Assembly: GCA_965216835.1 (NCBI GenBank)
Contig: OZ244210.1
Location: 1,429,136-1,493,135 of the forward strand
DNA: 64,000 bases
Source of the DNA: a bacterium
GTDB lineage: Bacteria; ARS69
Direction of reading: 5' to 3'
Made by a program: the position numbers and the translations under genes. Under the pieces are notes generated by a model, which had not been told where the DNA came from, made no database searches, and was given only the letters and a program-made list of their open reading frames with translations. How positions within the stretch are numbered: the first letter of the stretch is position 1; the number at the start of each line of letters is the position of its first letter. Below are positions 5,992 through 63,548 of the stretch, in pieces.

Positions 5992-6782
5992 GCGTCGCCG
6001 CCCTGCTCCTCCGCCTTGGCGCGCTCCCACACGCGGTCCATCTCCTCCAGCGTCATGCGACGCCCCTCGGAGTCCACCGCCTTCTCCACCTGGCGGAACC
6101 GTCGCTCGAACTTCTTGATGGTGCCCACCAGCACCTCCTCCGGGTTCCGGTTCAGGAACCGGAGCAGGTTGACCACGGCGAACAGGACGTCGCCCAGCTC
6201 CTCGATGGCGTGCTCCGTGTCGCCGGCGTGGTACGACGCGCGCACCTCCTCCATCTCCTCCTCCACCTTGGCGAAGACCGGATCCGGATGCTCCCAGTCG
6301 AAGCCGATGGCGGCGGCGCGCTCCTGCACGCGGCGCGCCCGCATGAGCGCGGGCAGAGAGTGGGGGATCCCGTCCAGCACGGACTCCCGGTCCGTCTTGC
6401 CGGACTTCTCCCGCTCCTCCTTCTTCACCTCTTCCCAGACCCGCTTGGCGTCGTCCGAGCTGGCGGCCGCGGCATCGCCGAAGACGTGGGGGTGGCGGCG
6501 GTAGATCTTGTCGTACGCACCGTCGAGGAGCTCCTTCACCGAGAAGAGCTTCTCCTCCTCGGCGATGACCGCGATGAAAAGGAGGACGTACAGCAGGTCC
6601 CCGAGCTCCTCGCGGAACTCCTGCGGATCCCCGGAGGAGTGGGCCTCCAGGACCTCGTAGGTCTCCTCCAGCAGGTTGGGCTTGAGCGTCTCGATGGTCT
6701 GGTCCGCGTCCCACGGACAGCCGCCCGGGCCGCGCAGGCGGAGTTCCAGCTGGTGAAGCCGTTCGAAGGCCTTGCCGGGCAT
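5988..6782 (-). CDS. mazG: Nucleoside triphosphate pyrophosphohydrolase MazG
   Basis: 264 aa with two MazG-type EExxE/D helical modules (LGDLLYVLLFIA..., EELGDVLFAVVNL...). Convergent with the upstream gene and overlapping its stop. Confidence 0.9.
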   Translation of the reverse strand: MPGKAFERLHQLELRLRGPGGCPWDADQTIETLKPNLLEETYEVLEAHSSGDPQEFREELGDLLYVLLFIAVIAEEEKLFSVKELLDGAYDKIYRRHPHVFGDAAAASSDDAKRVWEEVKKEEREKSGKTDRESVLDGIPHSLPALMRARRVQERAAAIGFDWEHPDPVFAKVEEEMEEVRASYHAGDTEHAIEELGDVLFAVVNLLRFLNRNPEEVLVGTIKKFERRFRQVEKAVDSEGRRMTLEEMDRVWERAKAEEQGGDA

Positions 6783-6906
6783 CGTTTTCCTCCGGTGGAG
6801 TTCGGGGCAGCGTACCGGCCGGCTGCGCGTCCATCAAGGGCGCGCCTTGCCGGTCTCCGGCGCCTCTCCTATGCTGGGCCGTCGGTCAAGGAGGGGAGGG
6901 GACGGC

Positions 6907-8079
6907 ATGAACACCATGAGCACCTGGGTGGAGGTGGACCTGGACGCCTTCGCGTCGAATCTCCGGCACATCCGCCGGCGGATCGGCCCGGAGGTGAAGG
7001 TCCACCTCGTCGTGAAGGCCGACGCCTACGGGCACGGCGCGCCCGCCATCGCCCGGGTCGCGGAGACCGAGGGCGTGCACTCGCTCGGCGTGGCCACCCT
7101 GGACGAGGGCGTGGAGCTGCGCACCCACGGCGTGCGCGCGCCCGTCATCATCCTGTCTCCTACGTTGCCCACCGAGGCCGAGCGGGTGGTGGAGTTCGGC
7201 CTCACTCCGACCGTCGGCAACCCGTCGGCGGCGCGGGCGGTGGCCGATGCCTCCCGGTCCCGCGGCGTCACCACCGACGTCCACGTCGAGGTGGACACGG
7301 GCATGGGACGCTCCGGCGTCGCCTCGGGGGAGGCGGTGGCGTTCTGTGCCGCCCTGGCCGAGCTGGAGGGACTTCGCCTGGCGGGGATGTTCACGCACTT
7401 CCCCAAGGCGGACTCGCCCAACGGCACGGCCATGGTGAACCGGCAGCTCGAGGACTTCCGCGCCGTGGCGGACGCCGTGCGTACCGCCGGACTGGAACCC
7501 GGCGTGCTCCACGCGTCGAACTCGTCCGCGCTCCTGTTCCATCCGTCGACGCACCTGGACATGGTCCGCCCGGGCCTCATCGCGTTCGGACTGACCACCG
7601 CGGGGGCGCACCCCAATCCGGAGGGCTTCCAGCCGGTGATGCGCTTCGTCAGCCGCCTGGTCCACGAGCGGGAGATGCCGCCGGGACATCCCATCAGCTA
7701 CGGCGGCGACTTCGTGACGCCCGAGACGATGCGGGTCGGCACGGCGTCGGTGGGCTACGGACACGGCTACCCCTTCGCGCTCTCGGGGCGGGGGTACGCA
7801 CTGCTGCGCGGCCACCGGATTCCCATCCTCGGTCGCGTGACGATGGACACCACCGTCTTCGACCTGCGCGGGGTCCCGGAGGCGCGACTCGGCGACGAGG
7901 TGGTGCTGTTCGGCTCGCAGGGCGACGAAACGATCCACGTGAACGACCTGGCCGCGCTGGCCGGCACGCTCCCGTACGAGATCCTGATCGGCATCGGCCG
8001 GCGGGTGCCGCGGATCTACATCCGCTCCGGCCGGAAGGTCGGCGCGCGCACGCTGCTCGGCGTGGAGGACGCGTCGTGA
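6907..8079 (+). CDS. alr: Alanine racemase
   Basis: VVKADAYGHG PLP-lysine motif, VDTGMGRSG, and C-terminal YEILIGIGRRVPRIY. Start set at the internal ATG (MNTMSTWVEVDL) preceded by GGAGGGGAGGGG; the ORF-track start at 6772 overlaps mazG. Confidence 0.9.
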   Translation: MNTMSTWVEVDLDAFASNLRHIRRRIGPEVKVHLVVKADAYGHGAPAIARVAETEGVHSLGVATLDEGVELRTHGVRAPVIILSPTLPTEAERVVEFGLTPTVGNPSAARAVADASRSRGVTTDVHVEVDTGMGRSGVASGEAVAFCAALAELEGLRLAGMFTHFPKADSPNGTAMVNRQLEDFRAVADAVRTAGLEPGVLHASNSSALLFHPSTHLDMVRPGLIAFGLTTAGAHPNPEGFQPVMRFVSRLVHEREMPPGHPISYGGDFVTPETMRVGTASVGYGHGYPFALSGRGYALLRGHRIPILGRVTMDTTVFDLRGVPEARLGDEVVLFGSQGDETIHVNDLAALAGTLPYEILIGIGRRVPRIYIRSGRKVGARTLLGVEDAS

Positions 8080-9275
8080 CGCCGCGCTTCGCGAAGGCGG
8101 CCATCGTGGTGCTGGACGGGGTCGGCGTGGGCGGAGCGCCGGACGCCGCGCAGTTCGGCGACGAGGGTTCCGACACGTTCGGCAACACGGCGCGCGCCGT
8201 CGGCGGGCTCTCGCTGCCGAACCTGGCGGCGCTCGGTCTCGGCAACCTCTCGGATATCCCGGGCGTCCCTCCCGCCGATGCGCCGAGGGCCGCGTGGGGC
8301 CGCCTGCGCGAGACGTCGGCGGGGAAGGACACCACCACCGGCCACTGGGAGCTGTCCGGCGTCGTCCTGAGGGAGCCGATGCCCACGTACCCCCGGGGTT
8401 TCCCGGCCGACGTCATGGAGCGCTTCGCGGAGATCGCGGGGAAGCCCGCCCTGTCCAACGAGGTCGCGTCCGGCACGGAGATCATCGCCCGCCTCGGCGC
8501 GGAGCATGTCCGCACCGGGCAAGCCATCGTCTACACGTCGGCCGACTCCGTCTTCCAGATCGCCGCGCACGAGGACGTGATCCCGCTGGAGGAGCTCTAC
8601 CGCATCTGTCGCGGGACCCGGGAGATGCTGACGGGCCCGCACGCGGTGGGGCGCGTCATCGCCCGGCCGTTCGTGGGGGAGGAGGGCGACTACCGCCGCA
8701 CGAACCAGCGCCGCGACTTCTCGCGGGAGCCGGAGGGCCCCACCCTTCTGGACCGCGTCTCGGCGTCGGGCCGGCCCGTCGTGTCCGTCGGGAAGATCGA
8801 CGATATCTTCGCGCACCGCGGCATCACGCGTTCCGTGCACGTGCTCCCCAACCTGGAGTGCGTCGATGCCACGGTGCGGGCGCTGCGCGAGATCGAGTCC
8901 GGACTGGTGTTCACGAACCTGATCGAGTTCGACATGCGCTTCGGCCACCGCAACGATCCGAAGGGAATGGCCGGCGCCCTGCGCGAGCTGGACGGGCGGG
9001 TGCCGGAGCTCCTGGATGCTGCCGGCTCCGACACACTGCTGGTGTTCACGGCCGACCACGGCAACGATCCCACCACGCCCAGCACCGACCACTCGCGCGA
9101 GGAGGTCCCCCTGCTGGCCTGGACGGGAGGCGGGAGCGCGGAGCTCGGGACGCGGCACTTCGCGGACGTCGGCGCCACGATCGTCGAGAACTTCGGGCTG
9201 GGGCCGCTGGAGGCCGGGGAGTCCTTCCTCGCGGCCTTGCCGGACGCCCCCGGAACGCGGACAATCCGCCGATGA
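8076..9275 (+). CDS. deoB: Phosphopentomutase
   Basis: 399 aa from a GTG that overlaps the alr stop (GTGA). Metalloenzyme-superfamily motifs (VVLDGVGVG, TADHGNDPT) typical of DeoB. Confidence 0.9.
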   Translation: MTPRFAKAAIVVLDGVGVGGAPDAAQFGDEGSDTFGNTARAVGGLSLPNLAALGLGNLSDIPGVPPADAPRAAWGRLRETSAGKDTTTGHWELSGVVLREPMPTYPRGFPADVMERFAEIAGKPALSNEVASGTEIIARLGAEHVRTGQAIVYTSADSVFQIAAHEDVIPLEELYRICRGTREMLTGPHAVGRVIARPFVGEEGDYRRTNQRRDFSREPEGPTLLDRVSASGRPVVSVGKIDDIFAHRGITRSVHVLPNLECVDATVRALREIESGLVFTNLIEFDMRFGHRNDPKGMAGALRELDGRVPELLDAAGSDTLLVFTADHGNDPTTPSTDHSREEVPLLAWTGGGSAELGTRHFADVGATIVENFGLGPLEAGESFLAALPDAPGTRTIRR

Positions 9276-9685
9276 GCGAGGAACGGATGCAGGAACTGGT
9301 CGAGGCCGCGCGCCGGGCGGCCGAGGCGGCCTACGCGCCGTTCTCGGAGTACGCCGTGGGCGCCGCGCTGCTTACCGCCTTCGGCGAGGTCGTGACGGGC
9401 TGCAACGTGGAGAACTCGTCCTACGGGCTCTCGATGTGCGCGGAGCGAAACGCCGTATTCGCGGCGCGCGCCCGCGGTCTGGTGGACCCCGCGTCCGCGC
9501 CGCTGAAGGCCGTCGCCATCCACGCACCGAGGCCGCCCGCGCCGCAGCCCTGCGGCGCCTGCCGGCAGGTGCTGCGCGAGTTCGCGGGCCCGGAGCTTCC
9601 CGTCTGGGTGGACGGCCCGGGCGGCACGGAGCGGACGACGCTGGGAGAGCTGCTTCCGCGGGCGTTCGTGCTGGGGGATCGATGA
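9272..9685 (+). CDS. cdd: Cytidine deaminase
   Basis: 137 aa with the zinc-binding CAERNA and PCGACRQ motifs. ATG overlaps the deoB stop. Confidence 0.85.
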   Translation: MSEERMQELVEAARRAAEAAYAPFSEYAVGAALLTAFGEVVTGCNVENSSYGLSMCAERNAVFAARARGLVDPASAPLKAVAIHAPRPPAPQPCGACRQVLREFAGPELPVWVDGPGGTERTTLGELLPRAFVLGDR

Positions 9686-10233
9686 ACGAGAAGCTCGTGG
9701 AATCGGTGGTGCGGCGCGTCGTGGCGGCGCTCGACGCGGTCCCGTCGGCCGGCGTGTCGACGGGCACGGAGTTCACCCCGGCCGCCTGGCCGCCGCGGAC
9801 GGTGGCGATCGGCGCGGACCACGGCGGCTACGAACTGAAGGAGGACCTGCGCCGGTTCCTGGAGATGAAGAAGTACCGGGTCCTGGACTGCGGCACGAAC
9901 TCGAAGGACTCCGTGGACTATCCGGACTTTGCGCGCGCGGTGGCCGTCGCCGTCGCCGACGGACGCGCCGAGGCGGGCGTCATCGTGGACGGTGCGGGAA
10001 TCGGCTCCGGGATGGCGGCCAACAAGGTGCGAGGCGCGCGCTGCGGCGTGTGCCACGACATCGCCACGGTGCTGAACGCCCGCGAGCACAACGACGCCAA
10101 CGTCCTGTCGATCGGGTCGGGCGTGGTGTCCGCCAACCTGGCGCGACGGATGGTCGCGCTGTTCCTGCAGACCGAGAACGGCGGCGGACGGCACCTGCGT
10201 CGCGTCCGCAAGATCATGGAGATCGAGGGATGA
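9682..10233 (+). CDS. rpiB: Ribose-5-phosphate isomerase B (RpiB/LacAB family) with a roughly 40 aa N-terminal amphipathic extension
   Basis: Core TVAIGADHGGYELK...GSGMAANKVRGARCGVCHD is typical RpiB. The extension MNEKLVESVVRRVVAALDAV plus a Pro/Ala linker is in frame and has high third-position GC. ATG overlaps the cdd stop. Confidence 0.85.
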   Translation: MNEKLVESVVRRVVAALDAVPSAGVSTGTEFTPAAWPPRTVAIGADHGGYELKEDLRRFLEMKKYRVLDCGTNSKDSVDYPDFARAVAVAVADGRAEAGVIVDGAGIGSGMAANKVRGARCGVCHDIATVLNAREHNDANVLSIGSGVVSANLARRMVALFLQTENGGGRHLRRVRKIMEIEG

Positions 10234-11078
10234 CGCGCGAGGAACTCATCGGGACGATCACGCGGGAAGTGCTGCGGGCCCTCCAGGAGGAGTCGGCCGC
10301 CGGCGGCGCCCCGCCCGACGCGGCCTGGGCCTGCGACGGAGGAAGTCGTGTCCCCCGCGAGGGGCTGGTGGACCTGTGCCGGGACCTGGGCATCTGCCGC
10401 CTCGGCGGCACGCCGGGCGAGGCGCCGGGACCCGGGCTCGCCGGCTACATCGACCACACGGTGCTCAAGCCCGATGCGCCGCGGGCGGACATCGAGCGGC
10501 TCTGCCAGGAGGCGCGGGCCAACTCCTTCGCGTCCGTCTGCGTTCAGCCGTGGTGGGTCGGGCTGTGCGCGGATCTGCTGGCGGGGTCCACGGTCAAGGT
10601 GTGCACGGTGATCGGCTTCCCGCACGGCATGAACAAGCCCGAGGTGAAGAGCTACGAGTCGCGCCGGGCCATGGAGGACGGCGCCACCGAGCTGGACATG
10701 GTGATCAACATCGGCGCGCTGAAGTCCAAGGACTACGGCACCGTGGAGCGCGACATCCGCGGCGTGGTGGAGGTGGCGCACCCGCGGGCGTCGGTGAAGG
10801 TCATCCTGGAGAACGCCTACCTCACGGACGAGGAGAAGGCCGAGGGCTGCGCGCTGGCCAAGGCGGCCGGCGCCGACTACGTGAAGACGTCCACCGGCTT
10901 CGCGTCCGGCGGCGCCACCGTGGAGGACGTGGAGCTCATGCGGCGCGTCGTCGGTGAGGAGATGGGCGTCAAGGCGGCCGGCGGCATCCGCGACGCGGAC
11001 GTCGCGCGGCGGATGATCGAGGCGGGCGCCACCCGCCTGGGGGCCAGCGCCTCGCTGGCCATCGTGCAGGGCGGCTGA
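10230..11078 (+). CDS. deoC: Deoxyribose-phosphate aldolase with a roughly 55 aa N-terminal extension
   Basis: Core YIDHTVLKPDA...VKVILE...DYVKTSTGF contains the Schiff-base lysine region of DeoC. The extension MTREELIGTITREVLRALQEE plus a Gly/Pro/Ala linker precedes it. ATG overlaps the rpiB stop. Confidence 0.9.
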   Translation: MTREELIGTITREVLRALQEESAAGGAPPDAAWACDGGSRVPREGLVDLCRDLGICRLGGTPGEAPGPGLAGYIDHTVLKPDAPRADIERLCQEARANSFASVCVQPWWVGLCADLLAGSTVKVCTVIGFPHGMNKPEVKSYESRRAMEDGATELDMVINIGALKSKDYGTVERDIRGVVEVAHPRASVKVILENAYLTDEEKAEGCALAKAAGADYVKTSTGFASGGATVEDVELMRRVVGEEMGVKAAGGIRDADVARRMIEAGATRLGASASLAIVQGG

Positions 11079-11080
11079 TC

Positions 11081-12379
11081 GTGCACATCCCGGAGATCCT
11101 CGAGCGCAAGCGCGAAGGCGCCGAGACTTCGCCGGAGGAGATCGCCGCGCTGATCGGCGGCCTGGTGGCCGGCGACGTTCCCGAGTACCAGGTCTCCGCC
11201 TGGCTGATGGCCGTCGTCTTCCGCGGCATGACCCGCCCCGAGACCGCCACGCTCACGCGCTTCATGATGGAGTCGGGAGAGGTGCTGGACTTCTCCGGAC
11301 TCGGGACCGTGGTGGACAAGCACTCCACGGGGGGCGTGGGCGACAAGATCTCCATCCCGCTGGCGCCGGCCGCCGCCGCCGCGGGAGCCCGCATCCCGAT
11401 GATCTCCGGGCGCGGCCTCGGGCACACCGGCGGCACGCTGGACAAGCTGGAGTCCATCCCCGGCCTCAACACGACGCTCTCGGTTCCGGAGTTCCGCCGC
11501 GTCACGAAGAAGATCGGCTTCTCCATCATCGGGGCGGGGAAGGAGCTCGCGCCGGCGGACGGTCGGCTCTACGCGCTTCGCGATGTCACCGGCACGGTGC
11601 CCAGTATCCCGCTCATCACGGCGAGCATCCTGTCCAAGAAGTACGCCGCCGGGGTGAACGGCCTCGTGCTGGACGTGAAGTGCGGCAGCGGCGCCTTCAT
11701 GAAGACCCGCGAGGACGCGGTCGAGCTGGCGCGGACGCTCGTGGAGGTGTCGGCGGAGATGGGGAAGCAGGCGCGCGCGCTGGTGACGTCGATGGAGGCG
11801 CCTCTGGGGCGCACCGTCGGGAACGCGCTGGAGGTCCGCGAGTCCATCGATGTGCTCCGCGGCGAGGGACCGGCCGACGTCCGCGAGCTCACCGTTGCGC
11901 TCGGCGCGGAACTCCTGCGGCTTTCGGGGATCGCGGAGGACTCCGCCGACGCCTCGTCGCGGATCGAGCGGACGCTGGACGATGGACAGGCGATGGAGAC
12001 GTTCGGCAGGTGGATCGAGGCGCAGTCCGGAGACCGGAAGGTTCTGGAGAATCCGGACCTGCTTCCGGCGGCGCCGGTCGTGCGGACGTTCGAGGCGGAA
12101 CGGACCGCGCATCTCCGGGCGATGGACTCCCGCGCCGTCGGGCTCGCGGCCAACGCGCTCGGCGCGGGCCGCACGCACGTGGGCGACGACGTGGATCCGG
12201 CGGTCGGCTTCGTCTTCCGGAAGCGGGTGGGCGAGGCCGTGGAGGCCGGCGAGCCCTGGGTGGAGATCCACGCGCGCTCCGAGGACGACGCCGACGGCGC
12301 CGCGCGCCGCCTGGCCGCCGCCGCGCAGTGGAGCGACGAGTCGCCGCCGAGCGGCCCTCTCGTCCTCGACACGCTCTAG
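11081..12379 (+). CDS. deoA: Thymidine / pyrimidine-nucleoside phosphorylase
   Basis: GTG start 2 nt after the deoC stop. Motifs DKHSTGGVGDK and SGRGLGHTGGTLDKLE of glycosyltransferase family 3 nucleoside phosphorylases. Confidence 0.9.
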   Translation: MHIPEILERKREGAETSPEEIAALIGGLVAGDVPEYQVSAWLMAVVFRGMTRPETATLTRFMMESGEVLDFSGLGTVVDKHSTGGVGDKISIPLAPAAAAAGARIPMISGRGLGHTGGTLDKLESIPGLNTTLSVPEFRRVTKKIGFSIIGAGKELAPADGRLYALRDVTGTVPSIPLITASILSKKYAAGVNGLVLDVKCGSGAFMKTREDAVELARTLVEVSAEMGKQARALVTSMEAPLGRTVGNALEVRESIDVLRGEGPADVRELTVALGAELLRLSGIAEDSADASSRIERTLDDGQAMETFGRWIEAQSGDRKVLENPDLLPAAPVVRTFEAERTAHLRAMDSRAVGLAANALGAGRTHVGDDVDPAVGFVFRKRVGEAVEAGEPWVEIHARSEDDADGAARRLAAAAQWSDESPPSGPLVLDTL

Positions 12380-12388
12380 GAATCGTCC

Positions 12389-14560
12389 TTGCGTCGCCTC
12401 GGGCCCGCGCTGGTTCTCCTCCTGGGGGCGAGCGCGCGGGTCCTCTATCTCCTCGACTCGCGCGTCGACCCGACGTTCCGCGCCCCCATCATCGACGCGC
12501 ACACGTACCAACGGATGGCGACGGATCTGGCGGGAGGGGCCTGGCCCGCCGAGCCGTTCTTCCAGCCGCCCGGCTACCCGGTGGCGCTCGCCGGACTCTA
12601 CGCGCTGTTCGGCGCCGATCCGGCGATTGCGCGGGCGGCGGGACTGGTCCTCGGCCTCGCCACTCTCGCGCTGACGATGTTCCTCGGGCGCCGACTCGGT
12701 CCTCCGGGGACGGGGCTCCTCGCCGGGACGATCGTCGCCCTCTCCGCCCCGATGATCTTCTTCGAGCAGCAGATCCTGCCCGCGGGTCCGGGCGCGCTGC
12801 TGACCACCGCGACGCTCTCTCTGGCGGCCTGGGGAGCCGCGTCCGGGCGACGGGTCGCGTGGGCGCTGGCGGGCGCCGTCGCCGGCCTGGCGACGCTGAA
12901 CGTGGCGAACCTGCTGGTGGCGGCCCCGCTGGCGCTGGGGCTGGCGGGAGTTCTCGCCGCGCGCCGTCGCTTCCGCGGCGCGGCGTCGGCCGGGCTCTTT
13001 GCCCTGGCGATGCTGATCGTGCTGGCGCCGGTCTCGATCCGAAACAGCGTCCTGGCCGGTCGGCCGCTGCTCGTATCCACGAACGGCGGGATCAACCTGT
13101 ACCTGGCGAACAACCCGGAGGCGGAGCGCACCGAGGCCATGCGTCCCGGCTACGCGTGGGCCGAGCTGTTCCGTTCCGCCGCGCGGGGGGGCGCCCGGAC
13201 CACCGCGGAGACGGACGCGCTCTATCTCCGGCGGGCGGTCGCCTGGATGGCCGAGGAGCCGGGTCGGGCCGCGGCCGGCGGACTGCGGCGCGGGCGTCAG
13301 CTGCTCTCCGGGCGGGAGCCGCCGCGCAACCAGGATCTCTACACCCACGCGGGTCACTCGCCGCTGCTCTCGTTCCTGGCGGCGCCGTTCGGCGTGCGCG
13401 CATTGCCGTTCGCGGCGCTGCTGGCGCTGGCGGCCGCGGGGCTCGCGAATGCCTGGCGGCGTCCGGATCGAAGGATCGTGGCGGCGCTGGTGCTCCTCTA
13501 CGCCGCCACGATGCTGCTCTTCCCGGTCGCGTCGCGGTACCGGGTGCCGCTGATCCCGGCGCTGGCCGTGTTCGCGGCCATCGGCGCACGGGTGATGATC
13601 GTCCGGGGGCACGCCGACGGCCGGCGGCGCGTGCGGACGGGACTGATCGCGGCGGCGGTCTTCCTGGTGGCGATGCTCCCCGTGACCGGTCCCGCGGACT
13701 CGGTCCCGTTCCGTGCGGAGATGTTCACGATGCTCGGGCGACAGGCGCTCGGGGCCGGGGACGTGGAGGGGGCGGTCGCTCACCTCCAGCGGGCGACGGA
13801 GGAGGACGCGAACTTCGTGCTCGCGTGGCAACTGCTCGGCGTCGCGCGGCGCGAGGCAGGCGACCTTCCGGGTGCGGAGGAAGCGCTGCGCACCGCGGTG
13901 GACACGGGCGGCGGCGCGGAGGCGCATCTGCTGCTGGGCGAGACGCTCCTGGCCCGCGGTCAGGCGGACGCGGCGGAGGACGAGTTCGCCCGGGCGGTGG
14001 AGGCATCGCCGGAGATCCCGCGGGCGAGTGCGGCGCTGGCGTTCTTCGCGACCGTGCGTGGCGATGCGCCGGCGGCGATCGCGCACCTGCGGCGGGCGGT
14101 GGAGGCCGATCCGCTGGATCCGGAGCCCGCGCTCGACCTGGCCTGGCGGCTCGCCACCACGCCGGACGATGCGCTGCGGGACGGCGAGGAGGCGCTCCGC
14201 GTGGCGGAGGCGGCGCTGGATCGGCTGCGCGGCGACGAGCCCGTCCTCGTGCGCGATCCCGGTGCGCTGGAGGTCCACGCCGCGGCGCTGGCGGAAACGG
14301 GGGAGCCGGAGCGGGCCCTGCGGGTCGCACAGCGGGCGCTGGCCGGCTGGGAGCGTCGGGGGAGATCCGCGGACGAGGAACGGGTGCTGGAGGCCGCACG
14401 GGGGTACGAGCGCGGCACCGCGTACCGCTCCAATCTCACGGAGCGTCCGGGCGGGCCGGAGATCGCGGTCCCCGGGGCCGAGGCCGCCGGGGACGACCCC
14501 CAAGAGAAAAGGCCCCCGGGGGGGCCTTCCAGGTTGTCCGCGGAACCGAACGGCGGCTAG
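12389..14560 (+). CDS. Membrane glycosyltransferase (GT39/ArnT/PMT-like fold) fused to C-terminal TPR repeats
   Basis: 723 aa. N-terminal two-thirds are polytopic membrane protein with periplasmic-loop motifs; the C-terminal third has TPR-like helical repeats (LQRATEEDANFVLAWQLLGV...). Paralogue of 53408..55525. Confidence 0.7.
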   Translation: MRRLGPALVLLLGASARVLYLLDSRVDPTFRAPIIDAHTYQRMATDLAGGAWPAEPFFQPPGYPVALAGLYALFGADPAIARAAGLVLGLATLALTMFLGRRLGPPGTGLLAGTIVALSAPMIFFEQQILPAGPGALLTTATLSLAAWGAASGRRVAWALAGAVAGLATLNVANLLVAAPLALGLAGVLAARRRFRGAASAGLFALAMLIVLAPVSIRNSVLAGRPLLVSTNGGINLYLANNPEAERTEAMRPGYAWAELFRSAARGGARTTAETDALYLRRAVAWMAEEPGRAAAGGLRRGRQLLSGREPPRNQDLYTHAGHSPLLSFLAAPFGVRALPFAALLALAAAGLANAWRRPDRRIVAALVLLYAATMLLFPVASRYRVPLIPALAVFAAIGARVMIVRGHADGRRRVRTGLIAAAVFLVAMLPVTGPADSVPFRAEMFTMLGRQALGAGDVEGAVAHLQRATEEDANFVLAWQLLGVARREAGDLPGAEEALRTAVDTGGGAEAHLLLGETLLARGQADAAEDEFARAVEASPEIPRASAALAFFATVRGDAPAAIAHLRRAVEADPLDPEPALDLAWRLATTPDDALRDGEEALRVAEAALDRLRGDEPVLVRDPGALEVHAAALAETGEPERALRVAQRALAGWERRGRSADEERVLEAARGYERGTAYRSNLTERPGGPEIAVPGAEAAGDDPQEKRPPGGPSRLSAEPNGG

Positions 14561-52080: not shown

Positions 52081-53408
52081 CCTTCGCTCCGCGCGGGCAC
52101 GCGCTCCAGGTCCACCTCCAGCGCCAGCGAGAAAGCCCGCGCCTTGACCAGCAGCTCCCGCCATTCCGCGTCGGGCCGGGAGTCGGCGACGATGCCGCCT
52201 CCGGACCCGAACGAAAAGAGGTCCTCCCGGAACGTACCCGTCCGGATGGCGACGGCCAGGTCCAGCGAGCGGTCGAACCCGATCCAGCCGACTGCGCCCG
52301 TGTAGTCGCCGCGTGCGGCCGGTTCCAGGCCGGACAGGATCTGCATCGCCCGACGCTTGGGCGCCCCGGTGATGGAGCCGAACGGGAACAGGGCCGCGAC
52401 CGCGTCCAGCGCATCGCGGCCGGGGGCGAGCGTCCCGGTCACGGTGGACACCAGATGGTGAACGTGCGCGAACGACTCCAGCTCGCGCAGGTGGGGGACG
52501 CGCACGCTGCCCGGCGCGCAGACCTTGCCGAGGTCATTGCGGACGAGATCCGTGATCATGACCAGCTCGGCGCGGTCCTTCGGCGACCGGGCAAGCTCCG
52601 CCGCGCGTCGCGCGTCCTCGGCCGGGTCCGGGCTGCGGGCGGCGGTCCCCTTGATCGGACGCGATTCCAGTCGGCGGCCGCGCGCGGAGAGCAGGCGTTC
52701 CGGCGAGGACGAGATCACGGTGCGGTCCTCGGTCTCCACGTACGCCGCGAACGGGGCCGGGTTGTCGCGGCGCAACCGCTCGAAGAGCGCGAGCGGCGAC
52801 AGCGTCGTGCGGACGGCGAAGCGCGCGGTGAGGTTGGCCTGGTAGATGTCGCCCGCGCGGATGTGCTCCAGGATCCGCTCCACCCCGAGCCGGTGAGACG
52901 ACGGATCCAGCGACACGGATTCCACGTGGGAGCGGATCGCCGCGGAGGGCTCGTCGCCGCCCTGCCCCTCCCGCAGGATCTCCTCCAGGTCCTTCGCCCG
53001 CCGAAGCGCCTCGCGCTCGTCGAAGCCGCCGTCGCCGCGCAGCCCCCAGGAGGTCACCTCCACCGTGTCGTCCCGGACGATCGCGAACGTGTCGTAGACG
53101 CCGTACCAGGCGCCGGATCCCGGACGCGGCGGCAGTCCTTCGGCCGCGAACCCCGACTCGTACGGGAGCAGCGCCACGACTCCGCCCCGGAAGCCGCCGC
53201 CCTTCCCCGTCGCCACGCGCGGCAGGCGTTCCCGGAGTTCCTCCAGGCCCAGCCCTTCCGGCGGACGAAGCGTGAACACGGGGGCGGCGCCGAACACGTC
53301 GGGACCGTCGGCGGGGGAGAAACGGAAGCGGTCGCCGGACGGCAGCCGCCGGAAGAGCTCGTCCGCGGAGGCGACCCGCCGGAACGAGTGCCGCCGGGGC
53401 ACGCACAT
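52077..53408 (-). CDS. pabB: Aminodeoxychorismate synthase component I (chorismate-binding enzyme family)
   Basis: 443 aa from MCVPRR. C-terminal chorismate-binding domain (SSSPERLL, PIKGTAARS, FPFGSITGAPK, AVGWIGFD, GSGGGIVADS). The rest of the 1170 aa ORF upstream is read-through. Confidence 0.8.
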   Translation of the reverse strand: MCVPRRHSFRRVASADELFRRLPSGDRFRFSPADGPDVFGAAPVFTLRPPEGLGLEELRERLPRVATGKGGGFRGGVVALLPYESGFAAEGLPPRPGSGAWYGVYDTFAIVRDDTVEVTSWGLRGDGGFDEREALRRAKDLEEILREGQGGDEPSAAIRSHVESVSLDPSSHRLGVERILEHIRAGDIYQANLTARFAVRTTLSPLALFERLRRDNPAPFAAYVETEDRTVISSSPERLLSARGRRLESRPIKGTAARSPDPAEDARRAAELARSPKDRAELVMITDLVRNDLGKVCAPGSVRVPHLRELESFAHVHHLVSTVTGTLAPGRDALDAVAALFPFGSITGAPKRRAMQILSGLEPAARGDYTGAVGWIGFDRSLDLAVAIRTGTFREDLFSFGSGGGIVADSRPDAEWRELLVKARAFSLALEVDLERVPARSEG

Positions 53409-55525
53409 CACGGCGCGCCCCCGGTCTCGCCCCGGATCGTCCGCCGACGTTCCCGCGACGCCTGATCCGACGGGTCCAGCTCCACCACGCGGTCGAGGTC
53501 CTGCAGCGCGCCCGAAGGATCGCCGGAGTGGTACCGTGCGAAGGCGCGGAGCCGCAGCAGCTCCGCGTCGTCGGGGTCCTTGAGGAGCGCCTCGCTCAGC
53601 GTCCGCTGCCCCTCGTCCCAGCGGCCCAGGGAGAGGTGGAAGCTGGCGATGGCCAGCAGCGCCTCCCGCCGCGTGTCGGGATCCTCGCGGGCGAGCTCCA
53701 GCCAGCGCAGGCCGATGGCCTCCTTCTTGACCGCCAGCGCGGACTGCCCGGCGTTCAGGTGGAACCAGCTTCCCTCGGCCACGCCCTCGGCGTCCAGGCG
53801 GCGGAAGAGGTCGAAGGACTCGCGGTGCCGTCCCGCCATCCCGAGCGTCGTGGCCAGCGCCACCTGGTCCTCGGCGGCGCCCGCGGACAGCTCGGCCGCT
53901 TCCCGGCGAACCGCGAGGGCCCGCTCCATCTGTCCCGTCGCCTCGTACGCCTCCGCCAGGGATCGGCGGACGCGGAACGATCCCGGAAGCTCGGGCACCG
54001 CGCGCTCCAGTTCCGTCACGGCCTCCGCGGCGCGTCCCTCCCGGAGCAGCAGGGCGCCGAGATGGTGGCGCGCCTCGCCGAACGCCGGCTGGAGCCGGAG
54101 CGCCGTCCGGAACTCGCGCTCGGCCTCCTCGTCGAGGTCGCTGCGCGCGTAGACGTTGCCGAGCTGGTAGTGCGGCTGAGAAGCGTCGGGGTGATGGATC
54201 CCCAGGAAGTCGACGTTCAGCAGCACCGCGAACAGGACGAGCAGCCCGCCGAAAGTCAGGCGCCGGGCCAGGGATACGCCCGGTCCGAGAACGGCGGCCG
54301 CGCCGCCGCCCGCGAGCACCAGGAAGGCGGGCCAGGCCGGCAACCGGTAGCGGGAGCAAACGAAGAAGAGGACGACGCCGAACGCCATCGCCAGTGCGTA
54401 GAGGCTGACGTGGATCAGCTCGCGGCGTCGCGGCCAGGCGGCGATCAGTCCGACGAACGCGAGCGGAGCCACCCACCCGAAGTCGGGGAGGGGCAGGCGC
54501 AGGAGCGCATTGCGGTCCCGCACGAAGTAGAGGTCCACGTTGTTCCGGATCTCGTATCCCTGGAGGAAGAAGTAGGTCTTCCGGATCATCCCGCCGAGGA
54601 ACGACGCTGGCCGATCCTGCAGCGCGGCGGTGAACTTCGCCCGCCAGTAGGTGTCCTGCTCGGCGGCGCTCGGCGGGTGCCCGAGCTCCCGGGCGAGGGC
54701 GGCTTCCAGATCCTCGTTGCGCCAGGAAGAGAAGCCGGGGACCGACGCGCTCATGCCGTCGGCCTCCGGATGGTTCCCGATCCAGAGGTTGAGTCCGCCC
54801 TGGGAGCTGAGCAGCACCGGCTCGCCCGAGACGACGAGGTTCCGGATCGTGATCGGGGCCACGCAGAGCGCGATCCCGGCGGCCAGCAGCCCGACGCGGC
54901 CGGCCGCGCGGCTTCGGCCGTTCACGAACACCCACGCGACGGCCGGGAGGAGCGCGACGAGGAAGTTCGCCCGGGCGACGGCTCCCAGGCCGATGAGGAT
55001 CCCCGCCGACAGCCACCGGAGGGGGCCGGAGTCGGGACGCGCTCCGTCGAGGACGCGGAGCAGCGCCGCGCCCAGGAAGAACGCCAGCGGCACGATGAGG
55101 AGCTCGCGCCCGAAGTAGAGCAGCGGCCAGGCCGCGGCGCCGAGGAGTCCCGTGGCCCAGCCCGCGGCGGGGGAGAACCGGCGGCCGGCGATCTGCGCCA
55201 GCCACGTCACCGCGAACGATCCCAGGACGGCCTGGATCGCCCGCGCGATCAGCAGGTCCGGGCCTGGTAGTGCGAACGCGGCGGCGAGGAACCAGGCGTA
55301 CAGCGGCGTGCGGAAGTAGGTGTCGTCCTCGGGGCTCATCCAGGGCGACGACTCCAGGAGACCGCGCGCCCACTCCACGAGATACTCCGCGTCCAGCATC
55401 GGCAGCTGGAACACGGGATCGTTCCGCGTGGTGGCGATCAGCGTCAGCCGGAGCCCGAGGGCGAGCGCGAAGATCGCGATCGAGGCGCCGCGGTTCAGGC
55501 CGGCGGCGGGGGTGCGCTGGGTCAA
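53408..55525 (-). CDS. Membrane glycosyltransferase (GT39/ArnT/PMT-like fold) fused to C-terminal TPR repeats; paralogue of 12389..14560
   Basis: About 705 aa from a TTG (MTQRTPAAGLNRGASIAIFALALGL). Polytopic N-terminal domain with periplasmic-loop motif like the paralogue; C-terminal TPR units (HYQLGNVYARSDLDEEAEREFRTALRLQP...). Confidence 0.7.
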   Translation of the reverse strand: MTQRTPAAGLNRGASIAIFALALGLRLTLIATTRNDPVFQLPMLDAEYLVEWARGLLESSPWMSPEDDTYFRTPLYAWFLAAAFALPGPDLLIARAIQAVLGSFAVTWLAQIAGRRFSPAAGWATGLLGAAAWPLLYFGRELLIVPLAFFLGAALLRVLDGARPDSGPLRWLSAGILIGLGAVARANFLVALLPAVAWVFVNGRSRAAGRVGLLAAGIALCVAPITIRNLVVSGEPVLLSSQGGLNLWIGNHPEADGMSASVPGFSSWRNEDLEAALARELGHPPSAAEQDTYWRAKFTAALQDRPASFLGGMIRKTYFFLQGYEIRNNVDLYFVRDRNALLRLPLPDFGWVAPLAFVGLIAAWPRRRELIHVSLYALAMAFGVVLFFVCSRYRLPAWPAFLVLAGGGAAAVLGPGVSLARRLTFGGLLVLFAVLLNVDFLGIHHPDASQPHYQLGNVYARSDLDEEAEREFRTALRLQPAFGEARHHLGALLLREGRAAEAVTELERAVPELPGSFRVRRSLAEAYEATGQMERALAVRREAAELSAGAAEDQVALATTLGMAGRHRESFDLFRRLDAEGVAEGSWFHLNAGQSALAVKKEAIGLRWLELAREDPDTRREALLAIASFHLSLGRWDEGQRTLSEALLKDPDDAELLRLRAFARYHSGDPSGALQDLDRVVELDPSDQASRERRRTIRGETGGAP

Positions 55526-55693
55526 GAAGATCGTCTCCGGGAGTGCGGGGGAATCCGACGAGGATAGGGGCCCCGTAGCGGCCGGGCAAGCGGATCGCCC
55601 GCGGTTGCCGGTCCGGGGGGGCCTTGCTATAGTCTCGCCGTTCCTGTGCGCGGGCCGCGCGTGGCGGCCTGGACCCCGGCAGAAGGTGAATCG

Positions 55694-62173: not shown

Positions 62174-62261
62174 GGAGGGATGGCCGAGTGGTTGAAGGCG
62201 ACGGTCTTGAAAACCGTTGAGCCGCAAGGCTCCGTGGGTTCGAATCCTACTCCCTCCGCCA
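62174..62261 (+). tRNA. tRNA-Ser (anticodon TGA), class II with long variable arm
   Basis: 88 nt: acceptor GGAGGGA/TCCCTCC, anticodon loop CTTGAAA, extended variable arm, encoded CCA. Confidence 0.85.
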
Positions 62262-62298
62262 CCGCTTCGGCGGCGGAGGGCGGAGGTTCCCACGGCTC

Positions 62299-62390
62299 CC
62301 CGGATCCCGGAGAGGTGCGAGAGTGGCTGAATCGGGCCGCCTGCTAAGCGGTTGGGGAGAGAAATCTTCCTCGAGGGTTCGAATCCCTCC
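62299..62390 (+). tRNA. tRNA-Ser (anticodon GCT), class II with long variable arm
   Basis: 92 nt: acceptor GGAGAGG/CCTCTCC, anticodon loop CTGCTAA, long variable arm, encoded CCA. Confidence 0.85.
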
Positions 62391-62407
62391 CTCTCCGCCA
62401 CATCTCG

Positions 62408-62484
62408 AGGTTGTTTCGCGCCCATAGCTCAATCGGATAGAGCGTTTGGCTACGGACCAAAAGGTTGGGGGTTCGAGTCCTCCT
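62408..62484 (+). tRNA. tRNA-Arg (anticodon ACG)
   Basis: 77 nt: acceptor GCGCCCA/TGGGCGC, anticodon loop CTACGGA, T-loop TTCGAGT, encoded CCA. Confidence 0.85.
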
Positions 62485-62663
62485 GGGCGCGCCAACCTGA
62501 AGCCGTGCGGGGCCCCGCGATGCGGACGCCCCGTACCGGCTTCCCAGCGACCCGCCCCGCACGTCGTCCCGCGGGCGGATCGTTCACCCGCCGTCGCGCG
62601 CAGAGTCCCGTCCGCTCCCCCCGGAGCCGGCCGGATCGGCGCGGGGCCGCAAGGAGATGGGGA

Positions 62664-63548
62664 ATGGCTTCACCGCAACGACGGATTCCGCTCGCGCTGC
62701 TTCTCGCCCTGGGACTGGTCACTCTGGGATCGGCCGGCTCCGCCCGCGCCGAGATCTGGAAGGTGGACGAGTACCGCGCCATCCAGGACGCCATCCTCAC
62801 GGCCACCTACGGCGACACGGTGATGGTGGCGCCCGGGACGTACGAGGGTCCGATGGTCCTCCGCTCCGGCATCACGCTGATGTCCGAGGAGGGACGGGAG
62901 AAGACCACGCTCCGCTACGGCGGCGCGTTCTACGTCATCAAGGCGGAGGACACGGACAGCCTCACCGTCCTCGACGGCTTCTTCATCGACGGCGGGAAGG
63001 GCACGGAAGGCGTGATCCTCGCCAGCGAATCGCAGATGACCATCAGGAACTGCGAGATCCACGGCGGCTGGAGCGCCATCCGCGGTCTCTACTCCCAGAT
63101 GCTCATCGAGAACAACATCATCCGCGAGTGCCAGAACGGCATCTACCTGTTCGAGTCCGAGGGCACCGTGCGCGGCAATGACATCCAGCTCTGCATCAAC
63201 GGGATGTCGTTGCTGAGTGCCAGCCCTCGCATCATCCGCAACAACATCTCGCGGAACACGCTGGGGTTCCTGGTCAAGGAGCACTCCGATCCCATCATCG
63301 GGGGAAGCCTCGCGACGGCCAACCGGGTCTGGAACAACCAGGCGGGCGGGCTGAAGAACTCCACCTACCTGAAGCGCGACGGTCTTCGCACGATGAAGCC
63401 GTACACCATGAAGGTGCCGTACAACTACTGGGGGTCGGACTGTCCCGACGCCATCACCTTCCAGGGACCCGTCGAGTGGGCGCCGTGGGTCGACGAGTCC
63501 GGGGATCGTTCCATTGACTCCTGCGAGAAGAGCGAGACGTCCCCGTAG
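62664..63548 (+). CDS. Secreted right-handed parallel beta-helix repeat protein; paralogue of 55694..56737
   Basis: Start at the internal ATG (MASPQRRIPLALLLALGLVTLGSAGSARA) after AAGGAGA. The ORF-track start at 62352 would run through the tRNA cluster. Repetitive beta-helix rungs (IRNCEIHGGWSAIRGLY, IENNIIRECQNGIYLF, VRGNDIQLCINGMSLL). Confidence 0.6.
   Translation: MASPQRRIPLALLLALGLVTLGSAGSARAEIWKVDEYRAIQDAILTATYGDTVMVAPGTYEGPMVLRSGITLMSEEGREKTTLRYGGAFYVIKAEDTDSLTVLDGFFIDGGKGTEGVILASESQMTIRNCEIHGGWSAIRGLYSQMLIENNIIRECQNGIYLFESEGTVRGNDIQLCINGMSLLSASPRIIRNNISRNTLGFLVKEHSDPIIGGSLATANRVWNNQAGGLKNSTYLKRDGLRTMKPYTMKVPYNYWGSDCPDAITFQGPVEWAPWVDESGDRSIDSCEKSETSP

Follow-up and report, generated by a model that had tools for sequence, protein, structure and literature searches.

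Why should two neighboring enzymes of nucleoside catabolism each carry extra residues ahead of their catalytic domains? The question is raised by the adjacent rpiB and deoC genes in a 64,000-nucleotide stretch of DNA from a bacterium of the GTDB lineage ARS69 (contig OZ244210.1, positions 1,429,136 to 1,493,135; this whole stretch is referred to below as the window). A preliminary description of the window proposed that both gene products have N-terminal extensions resembling encapsulation peptides, the sequences that target cargo enzymes into bacterial microcompartments (BMCs). Judged by their sequences, rpiB and deoC are the known signature cargo pair of sugar-phosphate-utilizing (SPU) microcompartments, and the substitution pattern of the two extensions indicates purifying selection on both throughout the clade. 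The genes and the parts of their products are as follows.

9682 (ATG) to 10233 (TGA), + strand: rpiB-family gene, encoding an SPU-type 'RPI' of 183 residues with an encapsulation-type N-terminal peptide; Pfam LacAB_rpiB matches residues 41-178 (E 1e-48)
9688..9735, + strand: RpiB amphipathic helix, residues 3-18 (EKLVESVVRRVVAALD); AlphaFold2 per-residue confidence (pLDDT) 82-92; hydrophobic face L5, V6, V9, V10, V13, V14, L17
9736..9798, + strand: RpiB flexible linker, residues 19-39, varying in length and composition and ending in the clade motif PAxWPPR
9988..9996, + strand: RpiB active-site triplet Asp103-Gly104-Ala105, where active RpiB enzymes have Cys-Gly-Thr
10230 (ATG) to 11078 (TGA), + strand: deoC, encoding a deoxyribose-phosphate aldolase (DERA) of 282 residues with a 69-residue SPU-type N-terminal extension; matches TIGR00126 and PDB 6D33
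10236..10301, + strand: DeoC amphipathic helix, residues 3-24 (REELIGTITREVLRALQEESAA); pLDDT ~92; hydrophobic face with L6, I10, V14, L18
10302..10358, + strand: DeoC variable Ala/Gly/Pro-rich linker, residues 25-43; 27% mean identity in the clade, many indels, pLDDT 49-60
10359..10409, + strand: DeoC second conserved element, residues 44-60 (EGLVDLCRDLGICRLGG); 79% mean identity in a 55-sequence clade
10437..11075, + strand: DeoC TIM-barrel catalytic core, residues 70-282; pLDDT >90

The extra residues number 39 in RpiB, where the Pfam and NCBIfam models begin at residue 40-41, and 69 in DeoC, where the corresponding models begin at 70-73 and solved DERA structures align to residues 70-281 only. 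AlphaFold2, run with alignments, predicts a helix at residues 3-18 of RpiB, disorder over 19-39 (pLDDT <50 at 21-29) and the core from 40, and in DeoC a helix at 3-24, disorder over 25-42 and the core from about residue 70. The coordinates and the extension peptides given in the preliminary description (MNEKLVESVVRRVVAAL and MTREELIGTITREVLRAL) are exact, and its picture of an amphipathic helix followed by a Pro/Gly/Ala-rich linker agrees with the predicted helices, with the hydrophobic moments (muH) and with the composition of the linkers. The most amphipathic 14-mer in the whole of DeoC falls at residues 5-20 (muH 0.73, matched by 77 of 5000 shuffles); the RpiB N-terminus reaches muH 0.64 (matched by 203 of 5000), and a PduD encapsulation peptide gives 0.71. 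The linkers are 45-57% Ala, Gly or Pro and differ in length among orthologues, and the linker columns of the RpiB homologue alignment are mostly gapped or variable. Both proteins thus show the arrangement by which encapsulation peptides are recognized, a terminal amphipathic helix joined to the domain through a flexible linker of low conservation. A signal peptide or membrane anchor was considered for these helices and rejected, as they are charged and amphipathic rather than hydrophobic.

That the extensions begin at the upstream stop codon and keep a coding-like G+C content at third codon positions (GC3) is confirmed: the rpiB and deoC ATGs overlap the preceding stops as ATGA (cdd stop 9683-9685, rpiB stop 10231-10233), and GC3 is 0.97 in the RpiB and 0.90 in the DeoC extension, like that of the cores. 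Shine-Dalgarno-like motifs, GGGGGA and GAGGG, lie shortly 5' of the two starts. Of the best 120 DeoC homologues, roughly 100 align over 98-100% of the query length, the lowest at 54% identity, and 109 DeoC and 83 RpiB homologues retain the helix. Orthologues in which the extensions are missing or unconserved had been envisaged; instead, both extensions persist as conserved protein sequence in homologues only 52-58% identical, some hydrophobic positions being invariant, and their ratio of nonsynonymous to synonymous change (pN/pS) is below 1. Within the clade of 55 DeoCs, mean identity is 67% in the helix, 27% in the linker, 79% in the second element and 82% in the core. Among the RpiB homologues with full-length coverage, V13 is present in 83/83 and V10 in 82/83; in the DeoC helix T11 and V14 do not vary across 22 diverse homologues, and L6, T11 and V14 are at least 90% conserved in the 109. 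This pattern of conservation marks the extensions as real rather than chance low-complexity sequence, and a chance open frame in high-GC DNA is contradicted both by the conservation and by GC3. In a genome collection searched with DeoC, relatives were at most 68% identical and full-length matches at most 57% identical among the matches listed, and a search of metagenomes with the clade-specific N-terminal 117 residues gave 8 distant matches among those listed.

The second conserved element of DeoC, residues 44-60, had been overlooked in the preliminary description. Its residues C50, G54 and R57 are nearly invariant in the 55-sequence clade, its pN/pS, estimated roughly against two relatives, is ~0.1, and it aligns with an 'AGAxRxxxxxG' segment of DeoCs encoded beside shell genes. 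Many relatives (L007, L011, L017, L025, L044, L055, L008) have a Cys-rich stretch between helix and core, for example CDPCVACGLC or CxxCxxxC, a hint of metal or redox chemistry in those proteins; in the window clade just two conserved Cys residues are left, in DLCRDLGICR.

Behind the extensions, both catalytic cores had been described as normal; the DeoC core keeps its catalytic residues, the RpiB core does not. The window DeoC scores 275 bits against the TIGR00126 deoC equivalog model (cut-off 117, residues 70-279) and matches the DERA structure 6D33 over residues 70-281 (E 3e-76). The DeoC alignments show no variation at Asp156, Lys190 or the Schiff-base Lys219 (codon 10884-10886), and from its conserved residues DeoC has a class I DERA core with the Schiff-base Lys, relay Lys and Asp intact. 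RpiB lacks the catalytic Cys base and the Thr of the xCGTG motif that characterize the canonical enzyme: its VDGAG aligns opposite the ICGTG of Clostridium thermocellum RpiB (3HE8/3PH3), and Asp103 is found in 83/83 and Ala105 in 73/83 homologues. Because the catalytic Cys and Thr are replaced in this way, the window 'RpiB' probably does not function as a ribose-5-phosphate isomerase. The RPI of the SPU6 system has little or no ribose-5-phosphate isomerase activity (PMC11585597). The window protein narrowly clears the NCBIfam rpiB equivalog cut-off (143.9 vs 138.65 bits), so that annotation pipelines will label it ribose 5-phosphate isomerase B, a name that is probably wrong as to function. 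An internal GTG at 9802 corresponds to RpiB Val41, and the orthologue in the related locus L001 was called from this position (L001 9523), dropping the helix. Such an internal start is either a plain mis-annotation or the possible origin of an untagged, short RpiB isoform.

Comparison with enzymes encoded beside shell genes connects the window pair to SPU microcompartments. All SPU DERAs carry an N-terminal extension of ~70 residues, made up of an amphipathic helix and a poorly predicted second element, which non-BMC DERA does not have; the SPU isomerase, for its part, combines a typical encapsulation peptide at the N-terminus with loss of the active-site Cys, and the two enzymes form a complex (PMC11585597). 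The window proteins have the same features, namely a 69-residue DeoC extension comprising helix and second element, and an RpiB with an N-terminal helix, Asp103 in place of the Cys and a gene adjoining deoC. Earlier sources for this cargo pair are reportedly Axen 2014 and Sutter 2021. An hhalign comparison of the window-clade DeoC extension profile with that of DeoCs encoded beside BMC-H/BMC-P genes (L003, L008, L009, L022, L044, L055) gave 96.3% probability (E 2e-9) over 70 columns. It is on this homology to shell-adjacent extensions that the encapsulation-peptide reading of the helix-bearing extensions (hereafter tags) rests, and the resemblance proposed in the preliminary description is thereby upheld. 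A full-length DeoC homologue (P0090, 58% identical) is flanked by an RpiB gene and three EutN/CcmL genes, and at five further loci (L008, L009, L022, L044, L055) a tagged DeoC-RpiB pair lies beside BMC-H and/or BMC-P genes. Of 85 fetched loci, counted after near-duplicates had been set aside, 36 bear the DeoC extension (27 found by motif search and 9, Acidobacterial, by eye) and 49 have a plain DeoC without it. An Asp-type RpiB is adjacent at 29/36 of the former and 0/49 of the latter. The earlier assignment of DeoC and RpiB as signature enzymes of the sugar-phosphate class therefore matches the published SPU pair. Their pairing as cargo is not a new kind of system; what is new is the organization of the locus, with the tagged pair inside a nucleoside operon and unlinked from shell genes.

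Asp-type RpiB proteins of Acidobacteria, Anaerolineales and Methylomirabilota (L008, L014, L018, L019, L026, L033, L038, L062) have a different or additional N-terminal module of ~60 residues (ITEADxRxLxxGxxhxhxxGxxhTPLAxD…). This module resembles a 127-residue open reading frame (ORF) without a Pfam match that lies between BMC-P genes at L003 11385-11768. It possibly represents another type of domain associated with microcompartments.

The pair sits in a string of six genes, alr-deoB-cdd-rpiB-deoC-deoA, of which the remaining members are as follows.

6772..8079, + strand: alr, alanine racemase (Pfam Ala_racemase_N/C, E 2e-68); heads the coupled gene string and shares 4 nt at its stop with the start of deoB; translation probably begins downstream of 6772
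8076..9275, + strand: deoB, phosphopentomutase of 399 residues (Pfam Metalloenzyme, residues 7-375), without a terminal extension
9272..9685, + strand: cdd, cytidine deaminase of 137 residues (Pfam dCMP_cyt_deam_1 and _2), without an extension; its stop overlaps the rpiB ATG
11081..12379, + strand: deoA-type pyrimidine-nucleoside (thymidine) phosphorylase of 432 residues (Pfam Glycos_trans_3N, Glycos_transf_3, PYNP_C), without an extension

At each of the first four junctions start and stop overlap by 4 nt, and the gene for the phosphorylase begins 2 nt past the deoC stop; the six genes are a translationally coupled nucleoside-catabolism operon. The link to nucleoside catabolism drawn in the preliminary description is thus real, and it is conserved in relatives. 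The whole gene order is kept in relatives from different samples: L001, L005, L097 and L098, whose DeoCs are 70-78% identical to that of the window, and L087, whose RpiB is 63% identical. DeoB is 73-79% identical in L001, L005 and L087, and alr holds the matching position in all five. In L097 an apparent Cdd-RpiB fusion (9096-10004) was discounted, as the C-terminal half of Cdd is out of frame, probably through an assembly indel or frameshift in long-read data. The cdd-rpiB-deoC-deoA core also occurs in distant metagenome-assembled genomes (MAGs) from Guaymas (L007, L017, L025) and in a MAG labeled Ca. Eisenbacteria (L011). In L006 and the P0062 contig rpiB has been lost and the DeoC helix kept, in the order alr-(deoB)-cdd-deoC-deoA, and the P0062 DeoC is also without the second element. 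Since these rpiB-less relatives retain the DeoC helix, the helix should have a partner other than RpiB. A gene at 12389-14560 (+ strand), adjoining deoA and syntenic in relatives, encodes one of two large window proteins with a PMT_2 glycosyltransferase-like membrane domain and TPR repeats, the other lying at ~53408-55589 (- strand).

What, then, is the tagged pair for? The rpiB and deoC products are likely to be cargo of an SPU-type microcompartment encoded elsewhere in the 4.7 Mb genome. According to this reading, the pair would have become part of a cytosolic nucleoside-catabolism operon in this lineage, with the shell and aldehyde dehydrogenase genes distal to it. Untagged cytosolic Cdd, pyrimidine-nucleoside phosphorylase and phosphopentomutase would turn deoxynucleosides into deoxyribose 5-phosphate, which would pass into the shell. 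There DeoC, retained by its amphipathic helix and second element alongside a catalytically altered RpiB-like partner with a helix of its own, would cleave the deoxyribose 5-phosphate, and an encapsulated acylating aldehyde dehydrogenase would use up the acetaldehyde before it escapes. Published surveys offer precedents for such dispersal (Sutter 2021, PMC8217296): in Myxobacteria, pfam01791 genes bearing encapsulation peptides lie at sites distal to the HO microcompartment loci; FRAG8, with pfam01791, and MUF2 are fragmented or incomplete loci in Gemmatimonadetes; and MIC7 in Eisenbacteria and Latescibacteria combines shell proteins with an aldehyde dehydrogenase that has an N-terminal encapsulation peptide and is without a signature enzyme (Supplementary Data 2). 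Within our own comparison, Ca. Sulfopaludibacter SbA3 (L026) has a tagged pair but lacks shell genes up to 10 kb away from it, and its genome is nevertheless listed with an ACI microcompartment shell protein. Selection on the tags, the behavior of SPU DERA described below, the HO, MIC7 and FRAG8 precedents and SbA3 all argue, indirectly, for a distal shell.

Several observations weigh against this reading. As the preliminary description had noted, the 64 kb window has no shell genes: none of 16 BMC-H/P/T queries found a match by tblastn at E<=0.1, and PF00936, PF03319, PF00171 and PF06130 have no match among the annotated window ORFs. Nor did Pfam searches of essentially all other window ORFs reveal an aldehyde dehydrogenase, phosphotransacylase or PduS. 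An SPU locus is defined by BMC-H, BMC-T and a BMC-P triplet together with an acylating aldehyde dehydrogenase in the same locus, and since shell and aldehyde dehydrogenase genes are missing from these 64 kb, the window is by that definition not an SPU locus. The fetched flanks (<=10 kb per side) of L001, L005, L097, L098 and L087 contain no shell genes, and six clade relatives have neither a shell gene nor one for an aldehyde dehydrogenase, phosphotransacylase or PduS at less than 10 kb from the pair. Shell genes occur in the fetched flanks at just 7/36 loci with an extension-bearing DeoC, so in most cases the pair and shell genes are not physically linked. Co-occurrence of a tagged pair and a shell at the level of the genome is documented for SbA3 only, and the DeoC second element has diverged in the window clade, the Cys-rich motif of relatives being replaced by DLCRDLGICR. 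A protein search baited with the BMC-H of L044, a high-GC SPU locus, returned as its best 120 matches Actinomycetota-type proteins throughout and says nothing on presence or absence. Overall, the account given in the preliminary description stands as regards the nature of the extensions and of the system to which they belong, and makes a compartment in this organism likely rather than established.

These absences could mean that there is no shell, lost or never acquired, and that the helices instead self-associate into a soluble complex or condensate, or dock onto a partner that channels or limits acetaldehyde. We regard this as unlikely, though a genuine contender: besides the lack of shell or aldehyde dehydrogenase genes within 64 kb and of shell genes in the fetched flanks of 29/36 tagged-DeoC loci, the pair is built through 4-nt overlaps into an operon of untagged cytosolic enzymes, its second element has diverged, and SPU6 DERA and RPI form a stable complex in vitro, encapsulation peptides being known in addition to drive aggregation of core enzymes (PMC11585597). 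That same complex, however, forms even without the DERA extension, and full-length SPU DERA is insoluble when expressed without a shell (PMC11585597), so the helix is unneeded for RPI binding and would be a liability on its own; because the published DERA is insoluble with the extension and no shell, and binds RPI without the extension, the DeoC helix would need another partner. Further points against a pair working without a shell are that rpiB-less relatives retain the helix, that the tags are conserved to the same degree as in shell-linked clades, and that sister phyla have dispersed shell loci without a signature enzyme. More doubtful still is the specific proposal that the clade is devoid of shell genes altogether and that the tag helices build a shell-less 'naked metabolosome core' or condensate wired into the deo operon, although it would, if true, represent a microcompartment cargo module that outlives its compartment or works without one.

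Retention in some other protein compartment, for example an encapsulin, seems very improbable. The idea draws on the existence of DeoC-associated A-domain encapsulin operons (family 4B, beside DeoC in Thermococci; PMC8346489). The Thermococcus DeoC loci L030, L037, L040, L042 and L046, however, have neither an N-terminal extension nor an RpiB partner, and the neighbors of the window deoC are rpiB and deoA rather than an encapsulin gene as in family 4B. No encapsulin-type Pfam match was found among the annotated window ORFs, no dedicated encapsulin HMM search having been run, and homologous extensions are found on BMC-linked enzymes. Hardly credible at all is an artefact of annotation, in which the true starts would be internal (such as the GTG of RpiB Val41) and the upstream codons untranslated open spacer. 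A gene caller did place the L001 rpiB start at that internal GTG, and high G+C yields many spurious open frames, but protein-level conservation to 52-58% identity with invariant hydrophobic positions, GC3 of 0.90-0.97 with pN/pS <1, and the ATGA overlaps and Shine-Dalgarno-like motifs all speak against it, and Dwyer 2024 describes exactly such mis-annotation for SPU enzymes (PMC11585597).

Whether or not the shell is distal, the operon bears on what SPU microcompartments consume. The hypothesis that their substrate is deoxyribose 5-phosphate from DNA or nucleoside breakdown so far rests on locus content and in-vitro DERA activity, and the clade-wide coupling of the tagged pair to phosphopentomutase, cytidine deaminase and a phosphorylase provides independent support from gene context. 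The SPU characterization makes no mention of a phosphopentomutase, nucleoside phosphorylase or deaminase (PMC11585597), and our literature search found no paper tying any of these three to microcompartments. Shell-centered catalogues gather genes within 12 ORFs of a shell gene (PMC8217296), and for this reason miss signature enzymes that are unlinked. Tagged enzymes of this kind could explain why ACI, MIC7 and FRAG-type metabolosomes seem to be without a signature enzyme. There are consequences for annotation too: gene callers routinely miss the extensions of SPU enzymes (PMC11585597), and the Asp-type protein is misnamed 'ribose 5-phosphate isomerase B'.

By Pfam annotation of essentially all its ORFs, the rest of the window shows housekeeping genes only, among them those for EF-G, RuvB/RuvC, Tgt/QueA, YajC, Def/Fmt, RsmB, Rpe, Ffh and TrkAH and an rRNA operon at 21688-27229 (16S 21688-23243, tRNA-Ile 23439-23515, tRNA-Ala 23705-23780, 23S 23995-27003, 5S 27113-27229). 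A gene at 17478-19922 (- strand) encodes an M14 carboxypeptidase with an InhA-like MAM domain and a FlgD_ig/CHU_C-type C-terminal domain resembling a type IX secretion sorting signal, a domain make-up that presumably fits a lineage of the FCB group. A tRNA cluster at 62174-62494 (Ser(tga), Ser(gct), Arg(acg)) is overlapped by a long ORF (62352-63548), the 5' part of which is spurious.

How the window pair relates to systems already described can be judged enzyme by enzyme and locus by locus. Canonical RpiB (Escherichia coli 1NN4/2VVR, C. thermocellum 3HE8) has the same fold and is 40-50% identical over residues 40-182; the window protein differs in having Asp103 and Ala105 for Cys and Thr, and the 39-residue N-terminal extension. 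With the classical encapsulation peptides of PduD, PduP and EutC, the tags share an amphipathic helix of 15-20 residues at the terminus, patterned hh..hh..hh, a poorly conserved linker and a comparable hydrophobic moment. In those systems, however, the cargo enzymes are others, and the DeoC helix is longer, at ~22 residues, with a second conserved element behind it. The phyla of the MIC7 and FRAG8/MUF2 loci are those closest to the labels on the relatives of the window clade, and the MIC7 complement of shell proteins and an aldehyde dehydrogenase with an encapsulation peptide is exactly what the window is missing, a link made through taxonomy and complementarity only; no gene of a MIC7-, FRAG8- or MUF2-type locus was seen in the window.

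The closest counterpart of the pair itself is the SPU6 locus of Chloroflexi (PMC11585597). There, as in the window, DERA has an extension of ~70 residues, with helix and second element, before an intact core, and the adjacent upstream gene encodes an RpiB-family protein with an N-terminal helix, a flexible linker and Asp in place of the catalytic Cys. A helix motif, …[DE]xx[LIV]xx[IV]V[RD][RE]V[VL]…, is common to the window RpiB and its Anaerolineales homologues. The window pair differs from SPU6 in having no BMC-H/T/P, aldehyde dehydrogenase, phosphotransacylase or PduS genes nearby, in lying between cdd and deoA in a nucleoside operon of housekeeping type, in its RpiB linker of ~20 rather than ~75 residues, and in the DERA second element, which has DLCRDLGICR in place of the Cys-rich/AGAxR version. 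A DeoC-family enzyme with an extension like an encapsulation peptide, encoded away from shell genes, has its parallel in the HO-distal pfam01791 aldolases of Myxobacteria, for which a role in nucleic-acid catabolism has been proposed (PMC8217296). Unlike these aldolases, the window enzyme has a tagged RpiB partner as well, and the two are embedded in a deoB-cdd-…-deoA operon.

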